Below, piece by piece: positions 1,011 to 41,336 of a stretch of DNA of 64,000 bases (its first letter is position 1; every line of letters starts with the position of its first letter). Origin of the DNA: Escherichia coli (GTDB taxonomy: Bacteria > Pseudomonadota > Gammaproteobacteria > Enterobacterales > Enterobacteriaceae); assembly GCF_030384885.1 (NCBI RefSeq), contig NZ_CP128613.1, one strand, 5' to 3'. The notes below the pieces were generated by a model. It was given only the letters and a program-made list of their open reading frames with translations, searched no databases and was not told the DNA's origin. A program made the translations under genes and the position numbers.

Positions 1011-1246
1011 CCCTTGCCCCCTGTTTTTATCATACTCTGAATAGCCAGGCTGTTATTTTACGACTTGCCTGTACAACGCCAATACTCACGAAAGTATGAC
1101 GAGCAAGCCTGTTACTCATCAGGCTTATCTTCAGTATATAAACGCCGATACGTTTTTACATAACCTAATGTAAAGAAGTTTAAAGAAAAGCGCGCCAGAA
1201 TGTGGCACTTTTTTAGTGCAGAAACGGAGTTTTCAGAAACAGGAAA

Positions 1247-1264
1247 GGCGGCATCGCTGCCGCC
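1247..1264 (-). terminator. Intrinsic terminator downstream of mukB
   Basis: Hairpin ggcggca-tcgc-tgccgcc 7 nt after the mukB stop, followed on the minus strand by a T-rich tract. Confidence 0.6.
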
Positions 1265-1270
1265 TCAATC

Positions 1271-4200
1271 TTAACTCGCCTGGGAAGGCGCTTCGTCAGT
1301 TCCTGGAAGCGTTTCAGGGAGTTGCGGTGCAAAACCACGCAGACCGACTACGTGAACGTGTTCGGTATTCTGGAAGACTTTACGCACCAGTTTATAGGTG
1401 GTGCCTTTTTCCGGGCTGATATTTTCCGGCGCTGCGATGATGAGCTGCATTTGCAAACGCTCACACAATTCAAACAGCGTGGCGATGGAACGGGCGTCCA
1501 GTCGCGCTGCTTCATCGAGGAACAGCAGGCGGCAAGGAGAGATATCTTTACCGCGCAGGCGGCGAGATTCATCTTCCCAGCTTTGTACCACCATCACCAG
1601 AATCGACATACCGGTACCAATCGCCTCACCGGTCGACAGTGCGCCAGACTCCGCGCGCAACCAACCATCGGAACCACGGTTAACCTCAACTTCCATTTCC
1701 AGATAGTTGCGGTAATCCAGCAGTTCTTCACCGATAGTCTGCGGCGTGCGCTGCCCCATATCAATCTGCGGGTTAAGACGTTGATACAGTTTCGCCAGCG
1801 CTTCCGAGAAGGTCAGACGGTTGCTGTTAAACAGATCCTGATGCTGCTCGTGCTGTTCAGAGAGCACATCCAGCAGCATGGCGTGCGTTTCACGTACGTT
1901 CACGTTCAGACGTACGCTGTTCACCTGACCGAACGATACGTTCTGCAAGCCCTGGTTGAGCATACGGATACGATTCTGTTCGCGCTGAATGGTTTTGCGA
2001 ATGATGTTCGCCACGCTGCGGGAACTGATCGCCAGTTTCTGTTCGCGGGACGTTAACTCTTCAGTCAGACGGCTAAGTTCGATCTCCATCTGCTCGATAG
2101 CTTCAACCGGATCATCAGTACGAATAATATCCTGACGAATACGTTCACGCAGATGCTGATAAACCGCCACGAAGAACTGAATTTTACGCTCCGGACGTTT
2201 TGGATCTTCTGACAAACGCAGCACGTCGCGCAGATGTTCATTATCCGCCACCGCCAGACGCAGCGCGCCTAACGCCTTATCCGACATGGAACGCAAATCA
2301 TCAGCGGAGAGATAAGCCAGCTCACGACGGTGTAAGCGGCGCTCAACGCCGTTATCTTTCACCATGCGCATGACTGCACACCAGCCCGCTTTCGCGGTCA
2401 CTACCTGCTCGCGCATCTCAAAGTAATCACGCTCCAGCTTGCGCAGTTTGCGGGTCAGGTTGTCCATCTCCGCTTCGCAGAAGGTAAGCGCTTTTTCCAG
2501 TTGGTTGCGACGTGAACGGTTATTGTTCAGCTGCGCATGTAACTCATCACGGCGAATACGCGCCCGCTCTTCTGCCCCGCTATCAGCACGCACGCCGATA
2601 TCCTGCAATTCACGTTGCAGATCGTTGAGTAGCTCTTTTTTGGTGTCATACGAACTTTTCAGCGAAGCCAGTACCTGATTGTACTGACTTAACTGCGCGG
2701 CGTGTCCGCGCAACGCTTCACGAGCGCGGGTACGCTCCGCTTCCGCCTGTTCCAGACGTTCACGCAGTTTTTCGTTGAGATCGCTGTTACCGCTAAGCAT
2801 TTCTGCCGAGTCAGAGTAGCTAAAGTGCGCACGACGCTGCACCACTTCCGTCAGGGCAAACGCCTGCTGACGGGCATCGCGCTGCATCTGCTGAGAGTAC
2901 GCGTAATCTTCTTTTAGCTGTTCGAACTGTTCCGGGTCACTCTGCAATACCGAAACGATCGGTTCCAGTTTCGCCAGTTGATTACCGAACTGCTGAACAA
3001 AACGCGCGGCTTCCTGGGCTTCATCCAGACGTTCGCGGATTTCATCGACGCGATCCGCCAGGCTGTCATCAGCCAACAAGTTGAGACGCGGCAGAATGCG
3101 GTTCAGCGCCGTAACACCCTCTTTCGCCTGCTCAAACTGAATACGCTGCTGCTGGTTATCATTTTCATGATTACTCAACGCCCGCTCCAGTTCGACGCGA
3201 CGGCTGTTCAGTTGACGGATTTCGGCTTCCGGATCAGACTCAAACGCCACCGCCAGATGGCTGCCGATAAAGCGGCTGAACGCCTGATGCAGACGCTGGG
3301 TTTTCTGTACATCAAAGGAGAGCGTGGCGAAGCGTTCGGAAAGCACTTCACGCTCGGCATGGAGGCTTTCGATACGGCTTTCGCGCGCCGCGCGTCCAAA
3401 CAGCGGCACTTCCGGGAAACGTGAATAACGCCACTGACGATCGGCGATTTTCACCACTACCGCTTTTTCCAGCTCATCAACGCTGAACACGCTGTCATCG
3501 AATGACTGCGGATCCCCTTCGATCAAATAGAGATCTTCCGGGCAATCGGTCAAGCCTTCCAGGTGTTCGGTTACCTGTGACAGATCTGGCACCACGATGG
3601 CGTGGCGTGACGGGCCATACAGCGCTGAGAAGTACGGCGCATCTTCCAGGCTAACGTCGTCATAAATTTCTGACAGCAGCACGCCGCCAAAACGCTCCGC
3701 CAGCGCATTCAAACGCTGGTCTTCAGAACCACCTGGCTGGCTTAAACGTTCGATCTCTTCATCGACGGCGTTTTTGCGCGCGCCTACTTCATCGCGTTCA
3801 ACAATGGCTTCGCGCTCACGCTCCAGCAACTGTTGCAGATATTCGGTGACATCCTGGCTGGAAGAGAACTCTTCGCCGCACTGTTCGCTCAACTGGTTGA
3901 GGCTGTTTTGCGCTGCCAGCCAAACCGGCGCACGCTGCATCAAACTCTGAATGCGAGACTGCAGCTGTTCCTGCTCCTGACGCAGTGCCATGCGCTCTTC
4001 ACGGGCGTTAGAAACACTGTCGGAAAGAGAGGCAATGCGCGCTTCCAGCTCCTGATGCAGGGCTTCCAGCTCGTCGATATCAAAATTCTTGCCCTGACGT
4101 TTGCAGAAATCTGCCAACAGACGCTCAGCTTCTTGCTGCTCGCGCAGACGCTGTTCCAGTTCGCTTAAGCGCATCCGCAACGGCTGAACCTGCTCTGCCA

Positions 4201-5731
4201 GGTGACGCTGATCGACCCCTTCGCGCAATAGTTCGCGAGCGACATCCCACGCCTCGTTACGCGCCAGCGGGCCGTTGATTGCCACCACCAGCTGATAAGC
4301 CTGCTCAAACTGGCTGTGCGCGGTTTGCGCCATGCTCATTTTCTGCTCAAGAGAGAGCATTTTTTCGGTCGCTTCCAGCTCTTTCGCCTGGAAGGTTTCC
4401 AGCCATTCGGCAGCGCTGTCGGCGGTTAAGTCCGGCAGATGGCACAGTTCTTTGGCACGATTAAGCGCAGCAATCGCCTGGTTATACTGGATCGCGCGCG
4501 TTTGCTGGACGTCCAGCGCCTGCTGGTAGTCAGCAAGCTGGCTTTTCAGCTCGTCCACTTCCAGCTCGGCAGCTTCCGCACGAGCCTCGTTCTCTTCCTG
4601 GCGCTCGATGGCTTCTGCCACCACTTCGTTTTGCTCTTCCAGGCGGACCTGCAACTCATCGAGATCCGCTTCGTAGCGTTCAATCTTTTCCTGCTGACGC
4701 AGTGCGGTTTGCACCAGGTTCAGATGATCGCTGGCCGCCTGATAATCCGCCTCCAGATCGCCTTCGGCACCGTTGTGCTCAGCCAGCTCTCGCGCCATGT
4801 CGACGTGTTTGTACTGCTCAGCCGCCAGTTGCTGACGCGAAGTATGTAGCTCGCGACGAAACTCCAGGGCCTTATCGAGATGAACACGGCGCTCGTTGGC
4901 GTGACGCATGTAGTCCGCCGCCACGTAGTTAGTCGCTTCGCTGATCAGATGCTTGAACAAGTCACGGTCAGACTGGGTAACACGAATCGCTTCCAGCGTC
5001 ATACGGTTTTCACGCAGCGCCGCTTCCATGTCCTGAAACGCTTTACGCACGCCGCTATTTTCTGGCAACAGGTAGTCGCGCAGAGAACGGGTGATGGCGC
5101 TGGAAATCCCGCCGTACAGCGAAGCTTCAATCAGACGATAGAATTTACTACGATCAGACGCTGAGCGCAGACGACGTGCGATGATGCCCAGATCGAACAT
5201 CAGCGAGTGGTAATCGGTAATAGAGTTGAACTGCTTAAACTGCACGCCTTCCATCGCTTCGAGCTTGTCTTTCAGCTCGTTAAGCGGCAGTACACGCGCC
5301 TGACGTTCATTCAGAGTTTCGGTCACCAGTTGTGTCGGCTGCACCGACATCGGCAAGCCCTGAATGGCAAATGGTTTAATATCCACTTTACGATCGCGCC
5401 CGGCAACCTGTTGCAGACGCACGCCGACCACCACGCGCTGATGGCGCGAGTTAATGGTGTCGAGCATCGAATAGCAGACACCCGCTTTCAGCTTACCGTG
5501 CAGACCTTTATCGCGCGAACCGCTGGTGGCCCCGGCTTCCGTAGTGTTACGGAAATGCAGCAGGGTCAGGTCGGGGATCAGCGCCGTAACGAACGCCGCC
5601 ATGGTGGTGGATTTACCCGCCCCGTTACCGCCAGAAAGCGTCGTGACCAGCTCGTCAAGGTCAAAAGTTCGGGCAAAAAAGCCGTTCCAGTTAATCAGCG
5701 TCAGTGAGCGAAATTTACCGCGTTCAATCAT
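1271..5731 (-). CDS. mukB: Chromosome partition protein MukB (SMC-like condensin subunit)
   Basis: 1486-aa ORF; N-terminal Walker A (GGNGAGKST), long coiled-coil region, C-terminal ATPase part; 1-nt TAATG overlap with the mukE stop. Confidence 0.97.
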
Positions 5732-6435
5732 TATTCTTCCTCTCCGCTATCTGGCTGATTCTCTTCGGTTTCATCGTTGAGTTGCAGATGATTTTCAATC
5801 GGCATTGCTTCGCCATCACGAATCAGGCGACGCTGTGCTTCACGGGGATCGTCGCCAGCACGCACATCGGCTCCGAAGCGGAACACCGATTCGGTAATGC
5901 GGAACTTGCTGCTGTCGTGGCCCATAAACCACACCATGCCTAAACGACGCAGACGGTTGAGCGAAGAACGTACTTTCTCCTGCAACTTCTGCCGGTCAAC
6001 GTCTGAACCGGTTGAACGGTTGTTCACCAGTTTCAGCAGTTTCGCTTCATCGGCCAGGGTGAGCAGTTCATCGTACAGTTCCTGCTGGGTGAAAATCCCC
6101 TCATTCGCCAGCCGTTCCGGGCTGAGATAAAGATAACAGAGGATTTTCCCGACCATCATATCCAGTTCCGACAAGACGGAACGAGGGATAATAGTGGTGG
6201 AACGTGGGCGTAAATAGAAGAACCCCTCCGGTGCGCGAATAAGCTCAACGTTATAACGCGCGTAAAATTCTTCCAGATATTCCTGAAAATCCATCAGGAA
6301 TGCATGATTATCCAGTTCGTCAAGGCCAATATGGCGGCCTGAACGTAAGGCGCTATCCAGCGCCGGAAATAACGGATTCGCCAGCGCCTGCGCCAGCTTA
6401 ACCGGCATCACTTGTTCAATATTTGTCGATGACAT
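5731..6435 (-). CDS. mukE: Condensin subunit MukE
   Basis: Track ORF 5731..6462; start chosen at ATG 6435 ([16 protein letters not shown]..., 234 aa), which overlaps the mukF 3' end by 20 nt. Alternative starts at 6462 and 6408 cannot be excluded from sequence alone. Confidence 0.88.
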
Positions 6436-7738
6436 GCGCCTGTACCTTGGCTCCGTAATCATTAATCGGCTGCCATTTCGCTGGCAGTCCGGTGAAATCT
6501 GCTTGCGCTACGCCAAGACGTACCGCCTGATCAATAACAATGCGCGCAACGTCAAAGTGACGTGCACGCGGATACTGTGACAGATATTCGCGTACCACCA
6601 GACCAAGATCCAACGGCACTTGTCTGGTTTTGTACACGGCAAGTTGTTCTTCGATGATCGCCGCCAGCTGTTCGCGGATCTCGTTAAACTCTTCGTACTC
6701 CAGATCCTCAGGAAGTTCCCCAGTCACTTCTTCATCGCGCAGTGCCATCTCTTCGTCACGCATATCCAGCAGACGATCGGCATTGGCATAAGTTAGCGCC
6801 CACGGTTCATCAAAATAGGTTTGTACCGACTGACGTAACCGCTGAGCAAAGACGCGGTTTTTATCCATATCGATAGCGGTACGAATAAATTTGTGTACGT
6901 GGCGGTCGTAGCCAATCCATAAGTCGATGGATTGCTGGCCCCAGCTGATAATACGGTCAAGTTTGCTTTGCAGATCGAACACCAGACGATCGACGAAATG
7001 CAGATCATCATGAGTCATCGTCGCATCCTGAATGCGTAACAGATTAGCCTGCAATTTATCACCTGCCGCTTCCAGCGTATCCTGCAATTCACGCAGCGTT
7101 CCGGAAGTTTCTGAAAGCAACAATTCGCAGCTGGAAATCGCCGCCCGCCAGTCTTTGTTCAGCAACTGGGCGATATCATCTTTCACCTGCTGCTGCTGTT
7201 CGTCCATCAGACGTTGCGTCAGGTCGATGCTGTCGAAAATTTCTGCTACCGAATATTTCAGTGGCGCATAGACATTACGGTGCCAGTGAAATTCATCACC
7301 GCCCTCTTCGGCGGCATCTGCCGCGCGTTTCAGTTCGCCCGCCACAATCGACAACTGCATAGAAAGGCGCAGCGTCGAAAACTCGCGCTGACGGATGTAG
7401 TAATCGGTAATACCGATGCCAAGCGGCGTCAGACGGTAAATTGCGTTCCCTTCAGCCTGCTCGCTGGTAAAGCGGTTCAGCAGACGTTGACGAACCATGT
7501 CGTTGATCGCGTTGTTGGCGCGCACGCCGATGGTTTCGCTGGTTTGCTCAAACGCATCACTCACATGGCGGAATGCATCCACCAGCTCGCCTTCGCTCAT
7601 CTCACCATCCAGACGCTCGCCGTTCAGCGTGGCAACCGCCAGCAGAAAAGAGAGTCGTTCTACCGGCAGCGAGATGGAGAAGTCATTTTTTCTGGCCCAG
7701 GCAACCAGTTCGGGGACTGTCTGGGAAAATTCACTCAT
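6416..7738 (-). CDS. mukF: Condensin kleisin subunit MukF
   Basis: 440-aa [23 protein letters not shown]...; ATGA overlap with the upstream cmoM stop. Confidence 0.95.
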
Positions 7739-8520
7739 ACTTTATCCTTGCTCTGCGGTTTGCGCGCGGTGACATGAATATAACGCCCCAGGGTAATATA
7801 CGGTTCCTGACGGCAATAACGCGTTTCTAATTCAAGTAATGCTTCATAGCAGTCGCACTGCTGGTGCTTCTCGCGCAGATAATCATGAAACACGCGAACG
7901 CCGGTCTTACCCATAATTTGCCAACCAGCTTCTTCCAGCCACAGATAAACCTGCGCCGGGTCGCGTGGATAATCTGGCGAAAGCGTCCGTTTTTTCTTTT
8001 TCGGCATTCCCGCCTGCACGTAATCAAAATTCCCTGCAACCATGTTATGCATCAGCAAGCCGTGCGCATTGTAGAACATTAACGACAACACACCGCCTGG
8101 ACGTAACACTGACCACAGGGTCTGCAATACGCTGCGGGGATCGGCCACCCACTCGAGCACCGCATGGAACAATATCAGATCAACGGGCGTTTCCAAATGC
8201 GAAGCAACATCCTGAGCGGCGCAATGTATAAATTGCATGTTGTCGCTCACACCTTTTGCTTCTGCCGCCTGTTTTGCGCGGTCGATCATCTGCGCTGAAA
8301 GATCGCATAAAATGACCTGATGCCCACGCTCGGCCATTTTGATTGCGGTCTGCCCTTCTCCACCGCCAGCATCCAGCACACGCAGTTTTTGCGAGCCCAT
8401 TTCCGCCAGCACGCGATCGAGATCCTGCCACAGAATAGCCTGTCGAAGCTGCCCTTTGGTGGTGCCGTAAATGTTACGGGAAAACTTTTCCGCAATATCA
8501 TCAAAATTGCGATCCTGCAT
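7735..8520 (-). CDS. cmoM: SAM-dependent methyltransferase CmoM (SmtA), tRNA cmo5U methylation
   Basis: Track ORF 7735..8532; start taken at ATG 8520 ([13 protein letters not shown]..., 261 aa); SAM-binding motif VLDAGGGEG; first gene of the mukFEB operon. Confidence 0.9.
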
Positions 8521-8655: not shown

Positions 8656-9435
8656 ATGCTTTTTACACTGAAAAAAGTGATTGGCAATATGTTGCTGCCA
8701 CTTCCGCTGATGTTGCTTATTATTGGCGCTGGCCTGGCGCTGCTGTGGTTTAGCCGTTTTCAAAAAACTGGGAAGATTTTTATTAGCATTGGGTGGCTGG
8801 CGCTCTTGTTATTGAGTTTGCAACCGATAGCCGACCGCCTGCTGCGTCCCATCGAAAGCACCTATCCGACATGGAATAATTCGCAAAAAGTGGACTATAT
8901 CGTGGTGCTCGGAGGTGGTTATACCTGGAACCCGCAGTGGGCACCGAGCTCTAATTTAATCAATAACAGTCTGCCACGCCTGAATGAAGGTATCCGCTTA
9001 TGGCGCGAAAATCCGGGATCAAAACTGATCTTCACGGGAGGCGTAGCAAAAACCAATACGGTGAGTACAGCCGAAGTAGGTGCCCGAGTTGCGCAATCGC
9101 TGGGTGTCCCTCGCGAGCAAATTATCACCCTGGATTTGCCAAAAGATACCGAAGAAGAAGCTGCGGCAGTGAAACAGGCGATTGGTGACGCCCCTTTCCT
9201 GCTGGTAACCTCCGCATCACATCTGCCGCGCGCGATGATCTTTTTTCAGCAGGAAGGGTTAAATCCGCTGCCAGCCCCGGCGAACCAGTTGGCCATCGAC
9301 TCGCCGCTTAATCCGTGGGAACGAGCAATCCCTTCTCCAGTCTGGTTAATGCATAGCGACCGCGTTGGCTATGAAACGCTTGGCCGGATCTGGCAGTGGC
9401 TGAAAGGTTCGTCAGGCGAGCCACGGCAAGAGTGA
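8656..9435 (+). CDS. elyC: Envelope biogenesis factor ElyC (YcbC), DUF218 membrane protein
   Basis: 259-aa ORF with N-terminal TM segment; diverges from cmoM; ATG preceded by aaagg. Confidence 0.9.
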   Translation: MLFTLKKVIGNMLLPLPLMLLIIGAGLALLWFSRFQKTGKIFISIGWLALLLLSLQPIADRLLRPIESTYPTWNNSQKVDYIVVLGGGYTWNPQWAPSSNLINNSLPRLNEGIRLWRENPGSKLIFTGGVAKTNTVSTAEVGARVAQSLGVPREQIITLDLPKDTEEEAAAVKQAIGDAPFLLVTSASHLPRAMIFFQQEGLNPLPAPANQLAIDSPLNPWERAIPSPVWLMHSDRVGYETLGRIWQWLKGSSGEPRQE

Positions 9436-15472: not shown

Positions 15473-17737
15473 CTACCCGTTATCCACTGGCACGCCAAAC
15501 CACTGATGATACCAACGAGGTAAAATTTGCTCTCTGAGGCTGCTAATCCGCCAGCCTTGCGCTGAAAAATTGACCGTTATTTGACCCTGATGTGGAGTAT
15601 CAAGCCACTTATAACCCTGTTGTTGATAGCGATGTTTAACTTTGCTTGAGGGCAGTCGCCATGCGTTATAGCGCGATGCCGATGCGAGTGCCACTTTTCC
15701 ATTCACTCGCTGAATTAATGGCAACGATGATGAGGTATTACTGCCATGGTGAGGTACCTGAAGTAATATTGCTTGTACTTGCTGCCAGTAACGGCTTAGC
15801 ATCTTTTGTTCAGCGGGGGCTTCAATATCACCGGTTAGAAGAATGCTATTCGTCCCGTCATCAATCTTAACCACACAGGAATGGTTATTTCCTTTATCGT
15901 TGCTACCTTGTAAAGGCCAGTGCGCGCTGAAACGCAATCCTTGCCATTGCCACGCTTCGCCACGCACACAGGGCTGATGATGTTCCCAGTTTAACGGACT
16001 TCGGATCCATAACATCGGCCATGTGTGCAATATTGAGTCCAGCCCTCCCCGGTGATCCAGATGTTCATGACTCAAAATAACGCCTTCCGGTTCAAGATTA
16101 TGCCAGTGGAGCCAGGGGATAATCAGTTGTTGCCCACTATCCCCATCGGGCCAGGCCAGTCCCGTGTCATAGAGAATCGCTTTGCCGTTTCGCGCAATGA
16201 CCATTGCCAGCCCTTGCCCGACATCAAGCATGTACACTTGCCACTCGTCAGGTCGAGGTTTTTGCCACAGCGGCAAGCACATCAGCAAGCCTACAGCCAC
16301 ACACATTGCTGGCAACGTTCGCCAGGCGTTTAATCGCCATACCACCAGTAAGAACCATGGGGAAAATGTTAGCCATTGCCAACGTTCAGCAATGTTGATC
16401 CACCCTTCCGGCAAACTCTTTAACCCCCAGAAAAGTAAAGCCAAAGACCGGTCGGCAAGAAACCATACTCCTTGTTCCACGATTAACGGCCCGCTTAAAT
16501 GCACAACCATCGCGGCGAGAATCAACGGAACCGTGATAAATGTCACCAGGGGAATTGCAAATAGGTTTGCAATAAACGAGGTCAGACTAATGCCATGAAA
16601 TATGACGATTTGCACAGGCATTAGCAGGAGCGTGATTCCAAGTTGTAGATGGATGAGGGAAACAACCGCGCGCAATACCGGCGGCAGCTGCCACTCCGGA
16701 CAGGGAAACCACTGATACCAAAAAATCAGTGCCGCGACCGCAGCGGCAGAGAGCCATAAACTTTGCGAGAGAATGGCAACAGGATCCATCAGCAAAATTG
16801 CCGCCAGACAACATATCCATACATCCCAGCCACTCCATTGTCGTCCACTTAACTTAAGCATTCCCCAAATGGCAAGCGCCACCACGGTACGCAATGCAGG
16901 AGGTTGCATTCCCGTTAGCCAGGCATAAAAAGCAGCACAGCAGATTCCACCAATTAATGGCATTTGCCAGTGGATCCAGCACCCAGGCAGAAAAACTTGC
17001 CCACCGCGAATGAGTCCTGCAGCCAGCAACGCCGCAAAAGCGATGTGCAATCCTGATATCGCCATTAAATGCGCCGTTCCAGTATCACGCATGATATTTT
17101 TGATTTCTTTGGGGACGGATAACCGTTCCCCCATACCTAATCCAAGAATAACCGCGTTCCACATATAGGGTTGCAGCGTTGTTTGTAGTGACGCCAGATA
17201 CTGTGCACGCAGGCTACAATTCGGTTCAATGACACTTGCCTGCAGAAAACGGCCGGTGAGCGGTTGATGCTGGGCAATGGCATAACGCTGGCTATCAAAG
17301 CCGCCATCATTAAGTTGGCCATGAACTGCACGAACTTTGAGTTTCATTGACCATACTTGTCCGGCACAAACCGCTTGCGGAAGATATTCGCCATACAGTA
17401 CGAGGCCTGGCGCAGGGAATATACGTCGACCTTGTAGATGAGTAATTTGACCGTAATGAGTGGTCATGCCGTCAGTAGCAATGATCTCAACAATTGCATC
17501 CTGCGTCGAGCCAGTTAAGGTTTCTCCTGCCCACAAAATTTGCTTTGCTGCTAATATGCCCCAAACGAAAAACAGCAACGTCAGCGCGATATAACGGACG
17601 GCTTTAACACGAATAAATGCCAGTACGCAGGCGAAGACAGTCAGAAACGCAAGGGTTAATGTCCCAGGCAATTGGGGCAAAACCAGCAACGGAAAAATTC
17701 CGCAAATTATGCATACGCCGACTGTCGTTATTTTCAT
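15473..17737 (-). CDS. ycaI: ComEC/Rec2-family DNA internalisation channel homologue YcaI
   Basis: Track ORF 780 aa; start taken at ATG 17737 (MKITTVGVCIICGIF..., 754 aa) with GGGAGG upstream; polytopic membrane domain plus C-terminal metallo-beta-lactamase-like region (HEHLDH). Confidence 0.9.
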   Translation of the reverse strand: MKITTVGVCIICGIFPLLVLPQLPGTLTLAFLTVFACVLAFIRVKAVRYIALTLLFFVWGILAAKQILWAGETLTGSTQDAIVEIIATDGMTTHYGQITHLQGRRIFPAPGLVLYGEYLPQAVCAGQVWSMKLKVRAVHGQLNDGGFDSQRYAIAQHQPLTGRFLQASVIEPNCSLRAQYLASLQTTLQPYMWNAVILGLGMGERLSVPKEIKNIMRDTGTAHLMAISGLHIAFAALLAAGLIRGGQVFLPGCWIHWQMPLIGGICCAAFYAWLTGMQPPALRTVVALAIWGMLKLSGRQWSGWDVWICCLAAILLMDPVAILSQSLWLSAAAVAALIFWYQWFPCPEWQLPPVLRAVVSLIHLQLGITLLLMPVQIVIFHGISLTSFIANLFAIPLVTFITVPLILAAMVVHLSGPLIVEQGVWFLADRSLALLFWGLKSLPEGWINIAERWQWLTFSPWFLLVVWRLNAWRTLPAMCVAVGLLMCLPLWQKPRPDEWQVYMLDVGQGLAMVIARNGKAILYDTGLAWPDGDSGQQLIIPWLHWHNLEPEGVILSHEHLDHRGGLDSILHTWPMLWIRSPLNWEHHQPCVRGEAWQWQGLRFSAHWPLQGSNDKGNNHSCVVKIDDGTNSILLTGDIEAPAEQKMLSRYWQQVQAILLQVPHHGSNTSSSLPLIQRVNGKVALASASRYNAWRLPSSKVKHRYQQQGYKWLDTPHQGQITVNFSAQGWRISSLREQILPRWYHQWFGVPVDNG

Positions 17738-41098: not shown

Positions 41099-41268
41099 AA
41101 TGGCTCACTCAAGCTTGCTCACGATTGATTCCAGTAACAAACCGTATTGTGTAATTATTTCTATAGCAGTTCGCTATATAGGCTTGTATATATCGAATGA
41201 TTTGAAAATCAAAGAGATAGGTAGATTTTCACTCGAAAGTAGTATTACGTGTTAGTGAGGAGTAATTA

Positions 41269-41282
41269 TTGTTCGGTATCAA
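41269..41282 (-). promoter_or_regulatory. FNR-type site in the dmsA promoter
   Basis: Minus strand reads TTGATaccgAACAA, the TTGAT-N4-ATCAA pattern with one mismatch in the right half, about 175 nt upstream of the dmsA ATG; dmsABC is an FNR-activated anaerobic operon. Confidence 0.6.
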
Positions 41283-41290
41283 AGGGAGAC

Positions 41291-41316
41291 AAAAAAAGCG
41301 CCCGCAGGCGCTTTTT
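41291..41316 (-). terminator. Intrinsic terminator downstream of serS
   Basis: gcgcc-cgca-ggcgc hairpin flanked by A7 and T5 (effectively bidirectional), 21 nt after the serS stop. Confidence 0.8.
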
Positions 41317-41336
41317 AGATTCAGAAAAATTGGGTA

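Follow-up and report, generated by a model that had tools for sequence, protein, structure and literature searches.

We conclude that MukE is very probably translated from the ATG at position 6435, which lies within the mukF 3' end, and that initiation in its operon is mainly directed gene by gene by Shine-Dalgarno (SD) sequences, with a possible addition from translational coupling. The region, part of a window of 64,000 nt of Escherichia coli DNA (contig NZ_CP128613.1), is the ordinary, well-studied cmoM(smtA)-mukF-mukE-mukB condensin operon on the minus strand. This MukE start is already known, as the K-12 annotation was corrected in 2014 and the correction was confirmed by experiment in 2016; what the present analysis adds is comparative support and the transfer of the assignment to the present strain. 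With a textbook operon and a start codon both corrected and confirmed, the locus has little discovery value.

The gene identities proposed in the first-pass annotation proved right on the basis of RefSeq names and Pfam domains (Table 1). Consistent with a MukBEF condensin operon, mukF (kleisin), mukE (KITE) and mukB (SMC-like) are adjacent and co-directional, and the two sources concur on all of them. Transcription as a single operon from the smtA/cmoM promoter was described by Yamanaka 1996, as cited in a passage of PMC4255302, and a promoter replacement is described in PMC7163298. In a consensus scan, no promoter-like sites were found on the operon strand between cmoM and mukB, including none inside mukF that would account for mRNA being 1.37-fold higher for mukE than for mukF (published values for smtA/mukF/mukE/mukB of 162/161/221/223; PMC5318159 Supplementary File 1). 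The scan also returned two weak terminator-like matches on the operon strand (8700-8682 and 2445-2428), with a total number of matches no greater than in shuffled sequence, and the strong hairpin just downstream of mukB is probably the operon end. No Rfam families were identified within the operon.

Table 1. Features of the cmoM-mukF-mukE-mukB operon (positions in the window)
Feature	Coordinates	Strand	Basis
cmoM (smtA) CDS, 261 aa, operon gene 1	7735..8520	-	RefSeq annotation of identical record; Pfam methyltransferase domains
mukF CDS, 440 aa, kleisin	6416..7738	-	RefSeq annotation; Pfam KicB, MukF_M, MukF_C
mukE CDS, 234 aa	5731..6435	-	RefSeq annotation; Pfam MukE 5.8e-127
mukB CDS, 1486 aa, SMC-like ATPase	1271..5731	-	RefSeq annotation; Pfam MukB, MukB_hinge
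GC-rich terminator-like hairpin, 5 nt past mukB stop	1245..1266	-	Consensus scan only
Near-invariant nucleotide island (-40..+32 relative to ATG 6435): mukE translation initiation region and dual-coding overlap	6404..6475	-	Entropy
AAGGA, SD-like for mukF, 6 nt before ATG, inside cmoM	7745..7749	-	Anti-SD duplex -5.2 kcal/mol
SD-like GGAG (6454-6451, 15 nt before ATG) and AAGG (6448-6445, 9 nt before ATG) for ATG 6435	6445..6454	-	Anti-SD duplex -5.6 to -5.8 kcal/mol
GGAGAGGA, SD-like for mukB, inside mukE 3' end	5738..5745	-	Anti-SD duplex -6.6 kcal/mol
ATGA, cmoM stop/mukF start, 4-nt overlap	7735..7738	-	mukF ATG 7738-7736, cmoM TGA 7737-7735
Dual-coding mukF/mukE overlap, 20 nt	6416..6435	-	Read from sequence; RefSeq annotation
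TAATG, mukE stop/mukB start, 1-nt overlap	5729..5733	-	mukE TAA 5733-5731, mukB ATG 5731-5729
mukE start codon in use, 234-aa form (MSSTNIEQV)	6433..6435	-	K-12 TetRP peak and N-terminal peptide; RefSeq; invariant in 78/78 species
Upstream in-frame ATG (243-aa reading), judged not a start	6460..6462	-	Weak SD-like pairing; ACG in 22% of species
GTG 6411 and ATG 6408, start annotated in 2006 (225-aa MukE); Val9 and Met10 of the real protein	6406..6411	-	No SD; TetRP 0/0/0

Three ATG codons in the mukE frame are candidate starts: 6462-6460, which would give a protein of 243 aa, 6435-6433 (234 aa) and 6408-6406 (225 aa). A GTG at 6411-6409, absent from the earlier list of candidates, is in the same frame. 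The first-pass annotation had described this frame as open from 6462; because the in-frame TAG lies at 6510-6508, it is open from 6507, and 6462 is merely the first start codon in it. The same annotation considered both 6435, with a 20-nt overlap with mukF, and 6408, 8 nt after the mukF stop, to be plausible starts. The coordinates hold (the spacer after the stop is 7 nt and the A of ATG 6408 is the 8th base past it), and of the two the former is correct, while the latter is the internal Met10.

The start had been called ambiguous, with initiation-site mapping or N-terminal proteomics suggested as checks, and published K-12 data of both kinds, together with RefSeq, settle it at 6435. Across the mukF/mukE junction, 139 nt of the window match K-12 base for base. 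Tetracycline-arrested ribosome profiling (TetRP) gave 20.1/14.1/10.6 reads at the ATG lying 27 nt ahead of the 2006 start (6435 in the window) versus 0/0/0 at the 2006 start itself (6408). These counts are low (10-20 reads) and, like the N-terminomics, were obtained with K-12 BW25113 under one or two conditions (PMC4909307, Tables S2/S4). Accordingly, mukE is listed in row 10 of Table S2 of that study with a shift of -27, an ATG start, a match to the 2014 annotation and an N-terminal peptide found (Nakahigashi et al. 2016, PMC4909307). The peptide, identified by COFRADIC, is that of the 234-aa MukE with Met1 removed and was scored as 'new annotation' (PMC4909307). RefSeq annotates 6435 and 234 aa for both the present strain and K-12 (NP_415443.2), and the 234-aa chain of PDB 3EUH aligns from residue 1. 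For the present strain, use of this -27 ATG as the start is supported by the K-12-identical sequence, by an SD and by conservation.

Among the candidate mukE starts, an SD-like sequence was identified by anti-SD duplex computation only for 6435, and this segment is nearly invariant across 78 species, its sole variable base being 6447 (A in 95%). No SD was found for ATG 6408 or GTG 6411 (best -0.2 kcal/mol; published aSD for the 225-aa start -0.28, PMC5318159), and ATG 6462 showed weak SD-like pairing (-1.8 kcal/mol) and adjoins a local fold of -21.6 kcal/mol. The mukE ribosome-binding site, comprising GGAG/AAGG and the ATG, is embedded in the final mukF codons, and mukF, mukE and mukB each have an SD-like sequence of their own inside the preceding gene. 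Published aSD values for mukF and mukB are -6.08 and -6.18, respectively (PMC5318159), and cmoM has a GGAG-type SD (-6.4 kcal/mol by anti-SD duplex computation). Since each downstream gene has its own SD, most initiation is probably ordinary and SD-directed, tuned for each gene.

Conservation was assessed in a sample of 75-79 species, all of them Enterobacteriaceae. Third-position entropy in mukF, otherwise about 1.0 bit, is only 0.125 over the last 30 nt of the gene, and in mukE it is 0.058 at +1..+30 and about 0.9 thereafter. No other 30-mer of the operon is as conserved as the segment from -22 to +7 around 6435 (H = 0.023 versus a mean of 0.443 over 3.8 kb in 75 Enterobacteriaceae species). 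Among 5425 E. coli genomes, 5397 carry the 80-nt junction (6396-6475) at 99% identity or more. The position of the mukE ribosome-binding site within the last mukF codons explains this freezing of about 70 nt at the nucleotide level. ATG 6408 is, like ATG 6435, invariant in the 78 enterobacterial species, whereas ATG 6462 is ACG in 22% of them. Beyond the enteric species, MukE has I/P/L/F in place of Met10 and no Met there; unique ATGs follow a stop 0-4 codons upstream and an N-terminal leader of similar length is kept. In other MukBEF lineages, represented by four metagenomic contigs, the mukF-mukE gaps are 34-85 nt.

Of the other candidate starts, ATG 6462 has in its favor that no ATG precedes it in the open frame and that one Photorhabdus record (P0074) is annotated likewise, but a 243-aa MukE can practically be dismissed given the replacement of this ATG by ACG and its weak pairing beside a stable fold. 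In addition, no second candidate is listed by TetRP, the observed peptide has Ser2 of the 234-aa form as its first residue and so follows a Met, which is not a tryptic site, and the PDB chain of Photorhabdus MukE (7NYW) begins at the Met equivalent to 6435. A start at ATG 6408 (or GTG 6411), following the mukF stop and with the upstream ATG a coincidence, was the annotation until U00096.3 and is the form seen in crystal structures 3RPU and 7V8P, and it would agree with the invariance of that codon and with the Pfam MukE model, which begins at this residue. However, this reading is already largely refuted and we consider it very improbable: TetRP gave no reads there, the sole N-terminal peptide is that of the long form, an SD is missing, conservation falls right after +32 rather than being centered on 6408, and non-enteric MukE has no Met at the position.

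It is also unlikely that both ATGs are used, with the SD at 6435 directing synthesis of the main 234-aa product and reinitiation at 6408 after the mukF TGA yielding a minor 225-aa one. The invariance of ATG 6408 only 7 nt past the mukF stop would suit such an arrangement, as would published work in which reinitiation is most efficient when the distance is very short and may proceed even without an SD. Moreover, 225-aa MukE is structurally competent, folding and assembling (PDB 3RPU, 7V8P), and recoded strains reported to carry unassigned codons in mukE, which in the long form are presumably codons 2 and 3, are viable. Against this, TetRP has neither signal at 6408 nor a second-candidate entry, and no short-form N-terminal peptide is listed, even though five other genes had dual peptides in PMC4909307. 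A minor or conditional second mukE start may nevertheless exist, given the invariance of ATG 6408 and the ability of 225-aa MukE to fold and assemble. We speculate, with little confidence, that ATG 6408 might be a conserved back-up start, at which ribosomes terminating on mukF would make functional 225-aa MukE if initiation or early elongation at 6435 fails. If so, it would account for the tolerance by recoded strains such as Syn61Δ3 of unassigned codons in the essential mukE, and the 72-nt frozen island would encode a device with two starts instead of just one ribosome-binding site.

The overlaps at the cmoM/mukF and mukE/mukB junctions, to which the first-pass annotation drew attention, were both read in the sequence where it had placed them. 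Of the 76 Enterobacteriaceae loci whose context could be read, about 73 have ATGA; about 73 of 79 species have TAATG (4- or 8-nt overlaps in the others), and the mukF TGA has an identical offset to the mukE start in 78 of 79. Overlaps of -4 and -1 are more common in E. coli than any other configuration, with 24% of 2,987 co-directional gene pairs spaced -8 to +6 (PMC10666635), and kdsB/ycaR and lpxK/msbA in the first 50 kb of the window likewise overlap by 4 nt; those here are real and conserved, yet nothing out of the ordinary. The overlap of 20 nt between mukF and mukE is of a rarer kind. As the mukE ATG precedes the mukF stop (TGA, 6418-6416) by 17 nt, it falls outside the canonical -8..+6 range, whereas cmoM/mukF and mukE/mukB have the stop/start proximity of coupled pairs. 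These two junctions show exactly the overlaps of the coupled pairs of Huber et al. 2019/2023 (-4 ATGA, -1 TAATG), and mukE and mukB, like those pairs, encode complex subunits. Unlike them, mukF/mukE overlaps by 20 nt with its start upstream of the stop, and the downstream genes of the operon are translated more than the upstream ones.

Translational coupling within the operon is plausible from this arrangement, and coupling for heteromeric complexes is a published general concept. A literature search identified neither a direct coupling test nor a start-codon discussion for mukF/mukE. The strict form, in which the same ribosomes would travel from cmoM to mukB by termination-reinitiation at three junctions and so fix the subunit ratio, is quite improbable, although all three junctions overlap, the overlaps are conserved in Enterobacteriaceae and genes for heteromeric complexes show an enrichment of short overlaps. 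Published ribosome densities, which use the old 225-aa mukE coordinates and in which coupled and independent initiation are not separable, are 44.7 for smtA, 78.5 for mukF, 130.3 for mukE and 116.5 for mukB (PMC5318159 Supplementary File 1), a ratio of 0.57 : 1 : 1.66 : 1.48, and reinitiation alone cannot yield more downstream than upstream product. MukE:MukF is 2:1 in the complex (B:E:F = 4:4:2 or 2:4:2; PMC4738335). Further evidence against strict coupling is that each gene has its own SD, that mukE starts well before the mukF stop rather than at it, and that the two genes are separated in other lineages. The best hairpin at the mukE start, which spans both AUGs, had -9.1 kcal/mol and was no better than shuffled sequence (z = -0.32); we therefore saw no sign of masking of the ribosome-binding site by structure, or of coupling through its unmasking by RNA unfolding.

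The earlier suggestion that coupling would help to set a fixed condensin subunit ratio is weakened by the downstream rise in density, the individual SDs and the non-overlapping mukF/mukE of other lineages, and coupling alone cannot set the MukBEF ratio. Rather, SD-directed initiation at each gene would give MukF : MukE : MukB of roughly 1 : 1.7 : 1.5, and at the -4 and -1 junctions ribosomes ending the upstream gene may contribute coupled initiation. The start site, geometry, conservation and ribosome densities are observed; the balance of independent and coupled initiation is one that we infer. The published densities illustrate that overlapping junctions do not on their own imply 1:1 coupled output.

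The old annotation also calls for caution in the use of published material. Genome recoding based on it reportedly left "forbidden" codons unrecoded in mukE of Syn61; the paper does not say which codons, and from the sequence they are presumably TCA TCG, codons 2-3 of the true MukE. Similarly, published structures and constructs mix N-termini, with 234 aa in 3EUH and 225 aa in 3RPU and 7V8P. The K-12 operon (b0921-b0924) has the same four genes in the same order, strand relation and junctions as the present strain, and the same MukE start and length of 234 aa, with one MukE residue differing (Ile81 here for Leu81 in K-12). The strain background is divergent from K-12. Strain 2013C-4282 matches the window at 100% identity, but over the 2.3 kb queried only 6 of 5425 genomes attain 99%.

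Three in-frame ATG codons, at 6462, 6435 and 6408, could begin mukE in the minus-strand operon cmoM(smtA)-mukF-mukE-mukB, which includes the genes of the MukBEF condensin, and would give proteins of 243, 234 and 225 aa, respectively, the last being the form in the old annotation; a GTG at 6411 is likewise in frame. The first-pass annotation treated the start as ambiguous (6435 or 6408) and proposed that overlaps at the gene junctions couple translation and help set the condensin subunit ratio. Strand reading and translation confirmed the three ATGs, and likewise the 20-nt mukF/mukE overlap and the TAATG and ATGA junctions that it described, except that the mukE frame is open from 6507, rather than 6462, with an in-frame TAG at 6510-6508; its interpretation was partly supported. 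Pfam domains support the identity of all four proteins, and K-12 has an identical gene layout, with a MukE (NP_415443.2) of 234 aa.

Coordinates of the operon genes and their junctions
Feature	Position	Strand	Basis or remark
cmoM	8520-7735	-	RefSeq annotation and Pfam
mukF	7738-6416	-	RefSeq annotation and Pfam
mukE	6435-5731	-	RefSeq annotation and Pfam
mukB	5731-1271	-	RefSeq annotation and Pfam
mukF stop TGA	6418-6416	-	20-nt overlap with ATG 6435; 7-nt spacer to ATG 6408
TAATG, mukE/mukB junction	5733-5729	-	strand reading
ATGA, cmoM/mukF junction	7738-7735	-	strand reading

The mukE start site is already known, and the question was settled by published data from K-12. Since 139 nt of the mukF/mukE junction are identical between the window and K-12, experiments in that strain transfer directly. 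In row 10 of Table S2 of Nakahigashi et al. 2016 (PMC4909307), the mukE initiation site is moved by -27 nt to an ATG at which tetracycline-arrested ribosome profiling (TetRP) gave 20.1, 14.1 and 10.6 in three samples, versus 0/0/0 at the start annotated in 2006; by coordinate match these two codons are 6435 and 6408. The -27 site is also the start annotated in 2014, the entry for the N-terminal peptide is "new annotation", and the 30-residue MukE peptide in the COFRADIC (N-terminal peptide) table corresponds to the 234-aa protein minus Met1 (PMC4909307). Because this peptide is preceded by Met and not by a tryptic site, it is evidence against the 243-aa reading as well. The check by profiling or N-terminal proteomics can thus be read from published K-12 data, in which 6435, one of the two starts held plausible, has both signal and peptide, and 6408 has no signal.

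Among the mukE candidates only ATG 6435 has a Shine-Dalgarno (SD) sequence, with AAGG 9 nt and GGAG 15 nt upstream and an anti-SD duplex of -5.6 to -5.8 kcal/mol. ATG 6408 and GTG 6411 are without one (-0.2 kcal/mol at best), the published anti-SD value for the old start being -0.28 (PMC5318159), and ATG 6462 pairs at -1.8 kcal/mol and adjoins a local fold of -21.6 kcal/mol. Across 78 Enterobacteriaceae species, ATG 6435 and ATG 6408 are invariant and ATG 6462 is replaced by ACG in 22%; third-codon-position entropy in mukF falls from ~1.0 bit to 0.125 in the 30 nt preceding ATG 6435, and in mukE it is 0.058 over +1..+30 before returning to ~0.9. When 3.8 kb of the operon from 75 Enterobacteriaceae species were aligned with MAFFT and compared in 30-mer windows, the most conserved 30-mer was -22..+7 around ATG 6435 (H = 0.023 versus a mean of 0.443); the centre of the conserved island is 6435, not 6408. 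Of 5425 E. coli genomes, 5397 match the 80-nt junction at 99% identity or more, whereas just 6 do so over the 2.3-kb query. Outside Enterobacterales, MukE retains an N-terminal leader of comparable length, with I, P, L or F at the position aligned to Met10 (ATG 6408), and three of four metagenomic loci examined have an SD-like sequence and a single possible mukE ATG, the frame being closed by a stop 0-4 codons before it. The second most conserved operon 30-mer (H = 0.05; 75 species) lies at 7693-7722 (-), just past the mukF start at mukF codons ~6-15; constraint on the protein's N-terminus or membership of the mukF initiation region could explain this.

MukE constructs in the PDB differ, 3EUH having 234 aa and 3RPU and 7V8P the 225-aa form, a split that is a leftover of the old ambiguity; in Photorhabdus (7NYW) and H. 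ducreyi (3EUK) the chain starts at the 6435-equivalent position. The Pfam MukE model PF04288 (window 5734-6435) begins at residue 10, leaving the first nine residues unmodelled, in keeping with the old 225-aa annotation. According to a 2026 recoding study, Syn61, whose design followed an older annotation, keeps forbidden codons in the essential gene mukE (PMC13287592). Judged from the sequence, these are presumably TCA TCG, codons 2-3 of the true MukE, because both sit in the 27 nt left out by the old annotation. That Syn61-type strains are viable is compatible with ATG 6408 serving as a minor or back-up start, which we consider improbable.

Translational coupling in this operon is plausible, but insufficient to set the subunit ratio. 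Short overlaps are generally held to promote coupling and to be overrepresented in genes encoding heteromeric complexes, and in Enterobacteriaceae the mukF TGA has a constant offset in 78/79 species, TAATG joins mukE and mukB in ~73/79 (the others overlap by 4 or 8 nt) and ATGA joins cmoM and mukF in ~73/76 loci. Overlaps of -4 and -1 are also the commonest co-directional arrangement in E. coli, with 24% of 2,987 pairs within -8..+6 (PMC10666635), and the first 50 kb of the window have two further 4-nt gene overlaps. Our literature search found no coupling test for cmoM-mukF-mukE-mukB.

Against a ratio set by coupling are the published ribosome densities for smtA, mukF, mukE and mukB of 44.7, 78.5, 130.3 and 116.5 (Burkhardt et al. 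2017, PMC5318159, Supplementary File 1), with mRNA levels of 162, 161, 221 and 223 and translation efficiencies of 0.28, 0.49, 0.59 and 0.52 (PMC5318159). From these densities, output climbs downstream as 0.57 : 1 : 1.66 : 1.48, which reinitiation by upstream ribosomes alone cannot yield, and which approaches the stoichiometry of the complex (B:E:F of 4:4:2 or 2:4:2; MukE:MukF 2:1, MukB:MukF 1-2:1; PMC4738335). In addition, for each of mukF, mukE and mukB there is a separate SD within the preceding gene, and mukE begins 17 nt before the mukF stop; the start closest to a ribosome terminating on mukF would be 6408, which has no initiation signal (TetRP, K-12). The sole hairpin across the two AUGs (-9.1 kcal/mol, z = -0.32) was no better than shuffled sequences, which leaves coupling of the unmasking type without support. 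In other MukBEF lineages (four metagenomic loci) the mukF-mukE gap is 34, 56 or 85 nt, or there is a 32-nt overlap; close packing of this junction is a trait of the family, not of MukBEF in general. Most likely, initiation would be SD-directed and tuned gene by gene, with a coupled share, at most, at the -4 (cmoM/mukF) and -1 (mukE/mukB) junctions.

Published mRNA rises ~1.37-fold from mukF (161; 6416-7738) to mukE/mukB (221-223; 5731-6435 for mukE), and a consensus scan found no promoter-like site inside mukF on the operon strand. The operon region has no Rfam match and no further concealed feature. The same four genes are present in 5425/5425 matching E. coli genomes. The window is chromosomal and, by extension from the 2.3 kb queried (mukF-mukE region, 5600-7900), represents an E. 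coli lineage that is divergent: just 6 of the 5425 complete genomes have at least 99% identity there, the remainder having 95-99%, and strain 2013C-4282 is 100% identical. Four matches to the mukF-mukE region fall on plasmid-typed records, which may be pieces of chromosome binned wrongly or large replicons of the chromid type. In an assembly labelled Chryseobacterium sp. 18061, a 647-kb contig (CACSKA010000002.1; locus L072) has a mukE of enterobacterial type (93% identity); the record is probably mislabelled or contaminated. Some non-enteric MukE homologues (proteins P0126, P0130, P0133 and P0136; locus L084, 798-2303) have 450-574 aa, with very long D/E-rich acidic C-terminal extensions, whereas the E. 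coli 234-aa MukE has a short acidic tail only. Elsewhere in the window, ycaI (ComEC family; 15473-17737, -) is annotated in this strain as a pseudogene interrupted by an internal stop, the convergent elyC (+) and ycbJ (-) share 24 nt of their 3' ends (9412-9435), and the sole Rfam match is a full-length STnc130 enterobacterial sRNA in the dmsA-serS gap (41189-41323, +; 139.5 bits).
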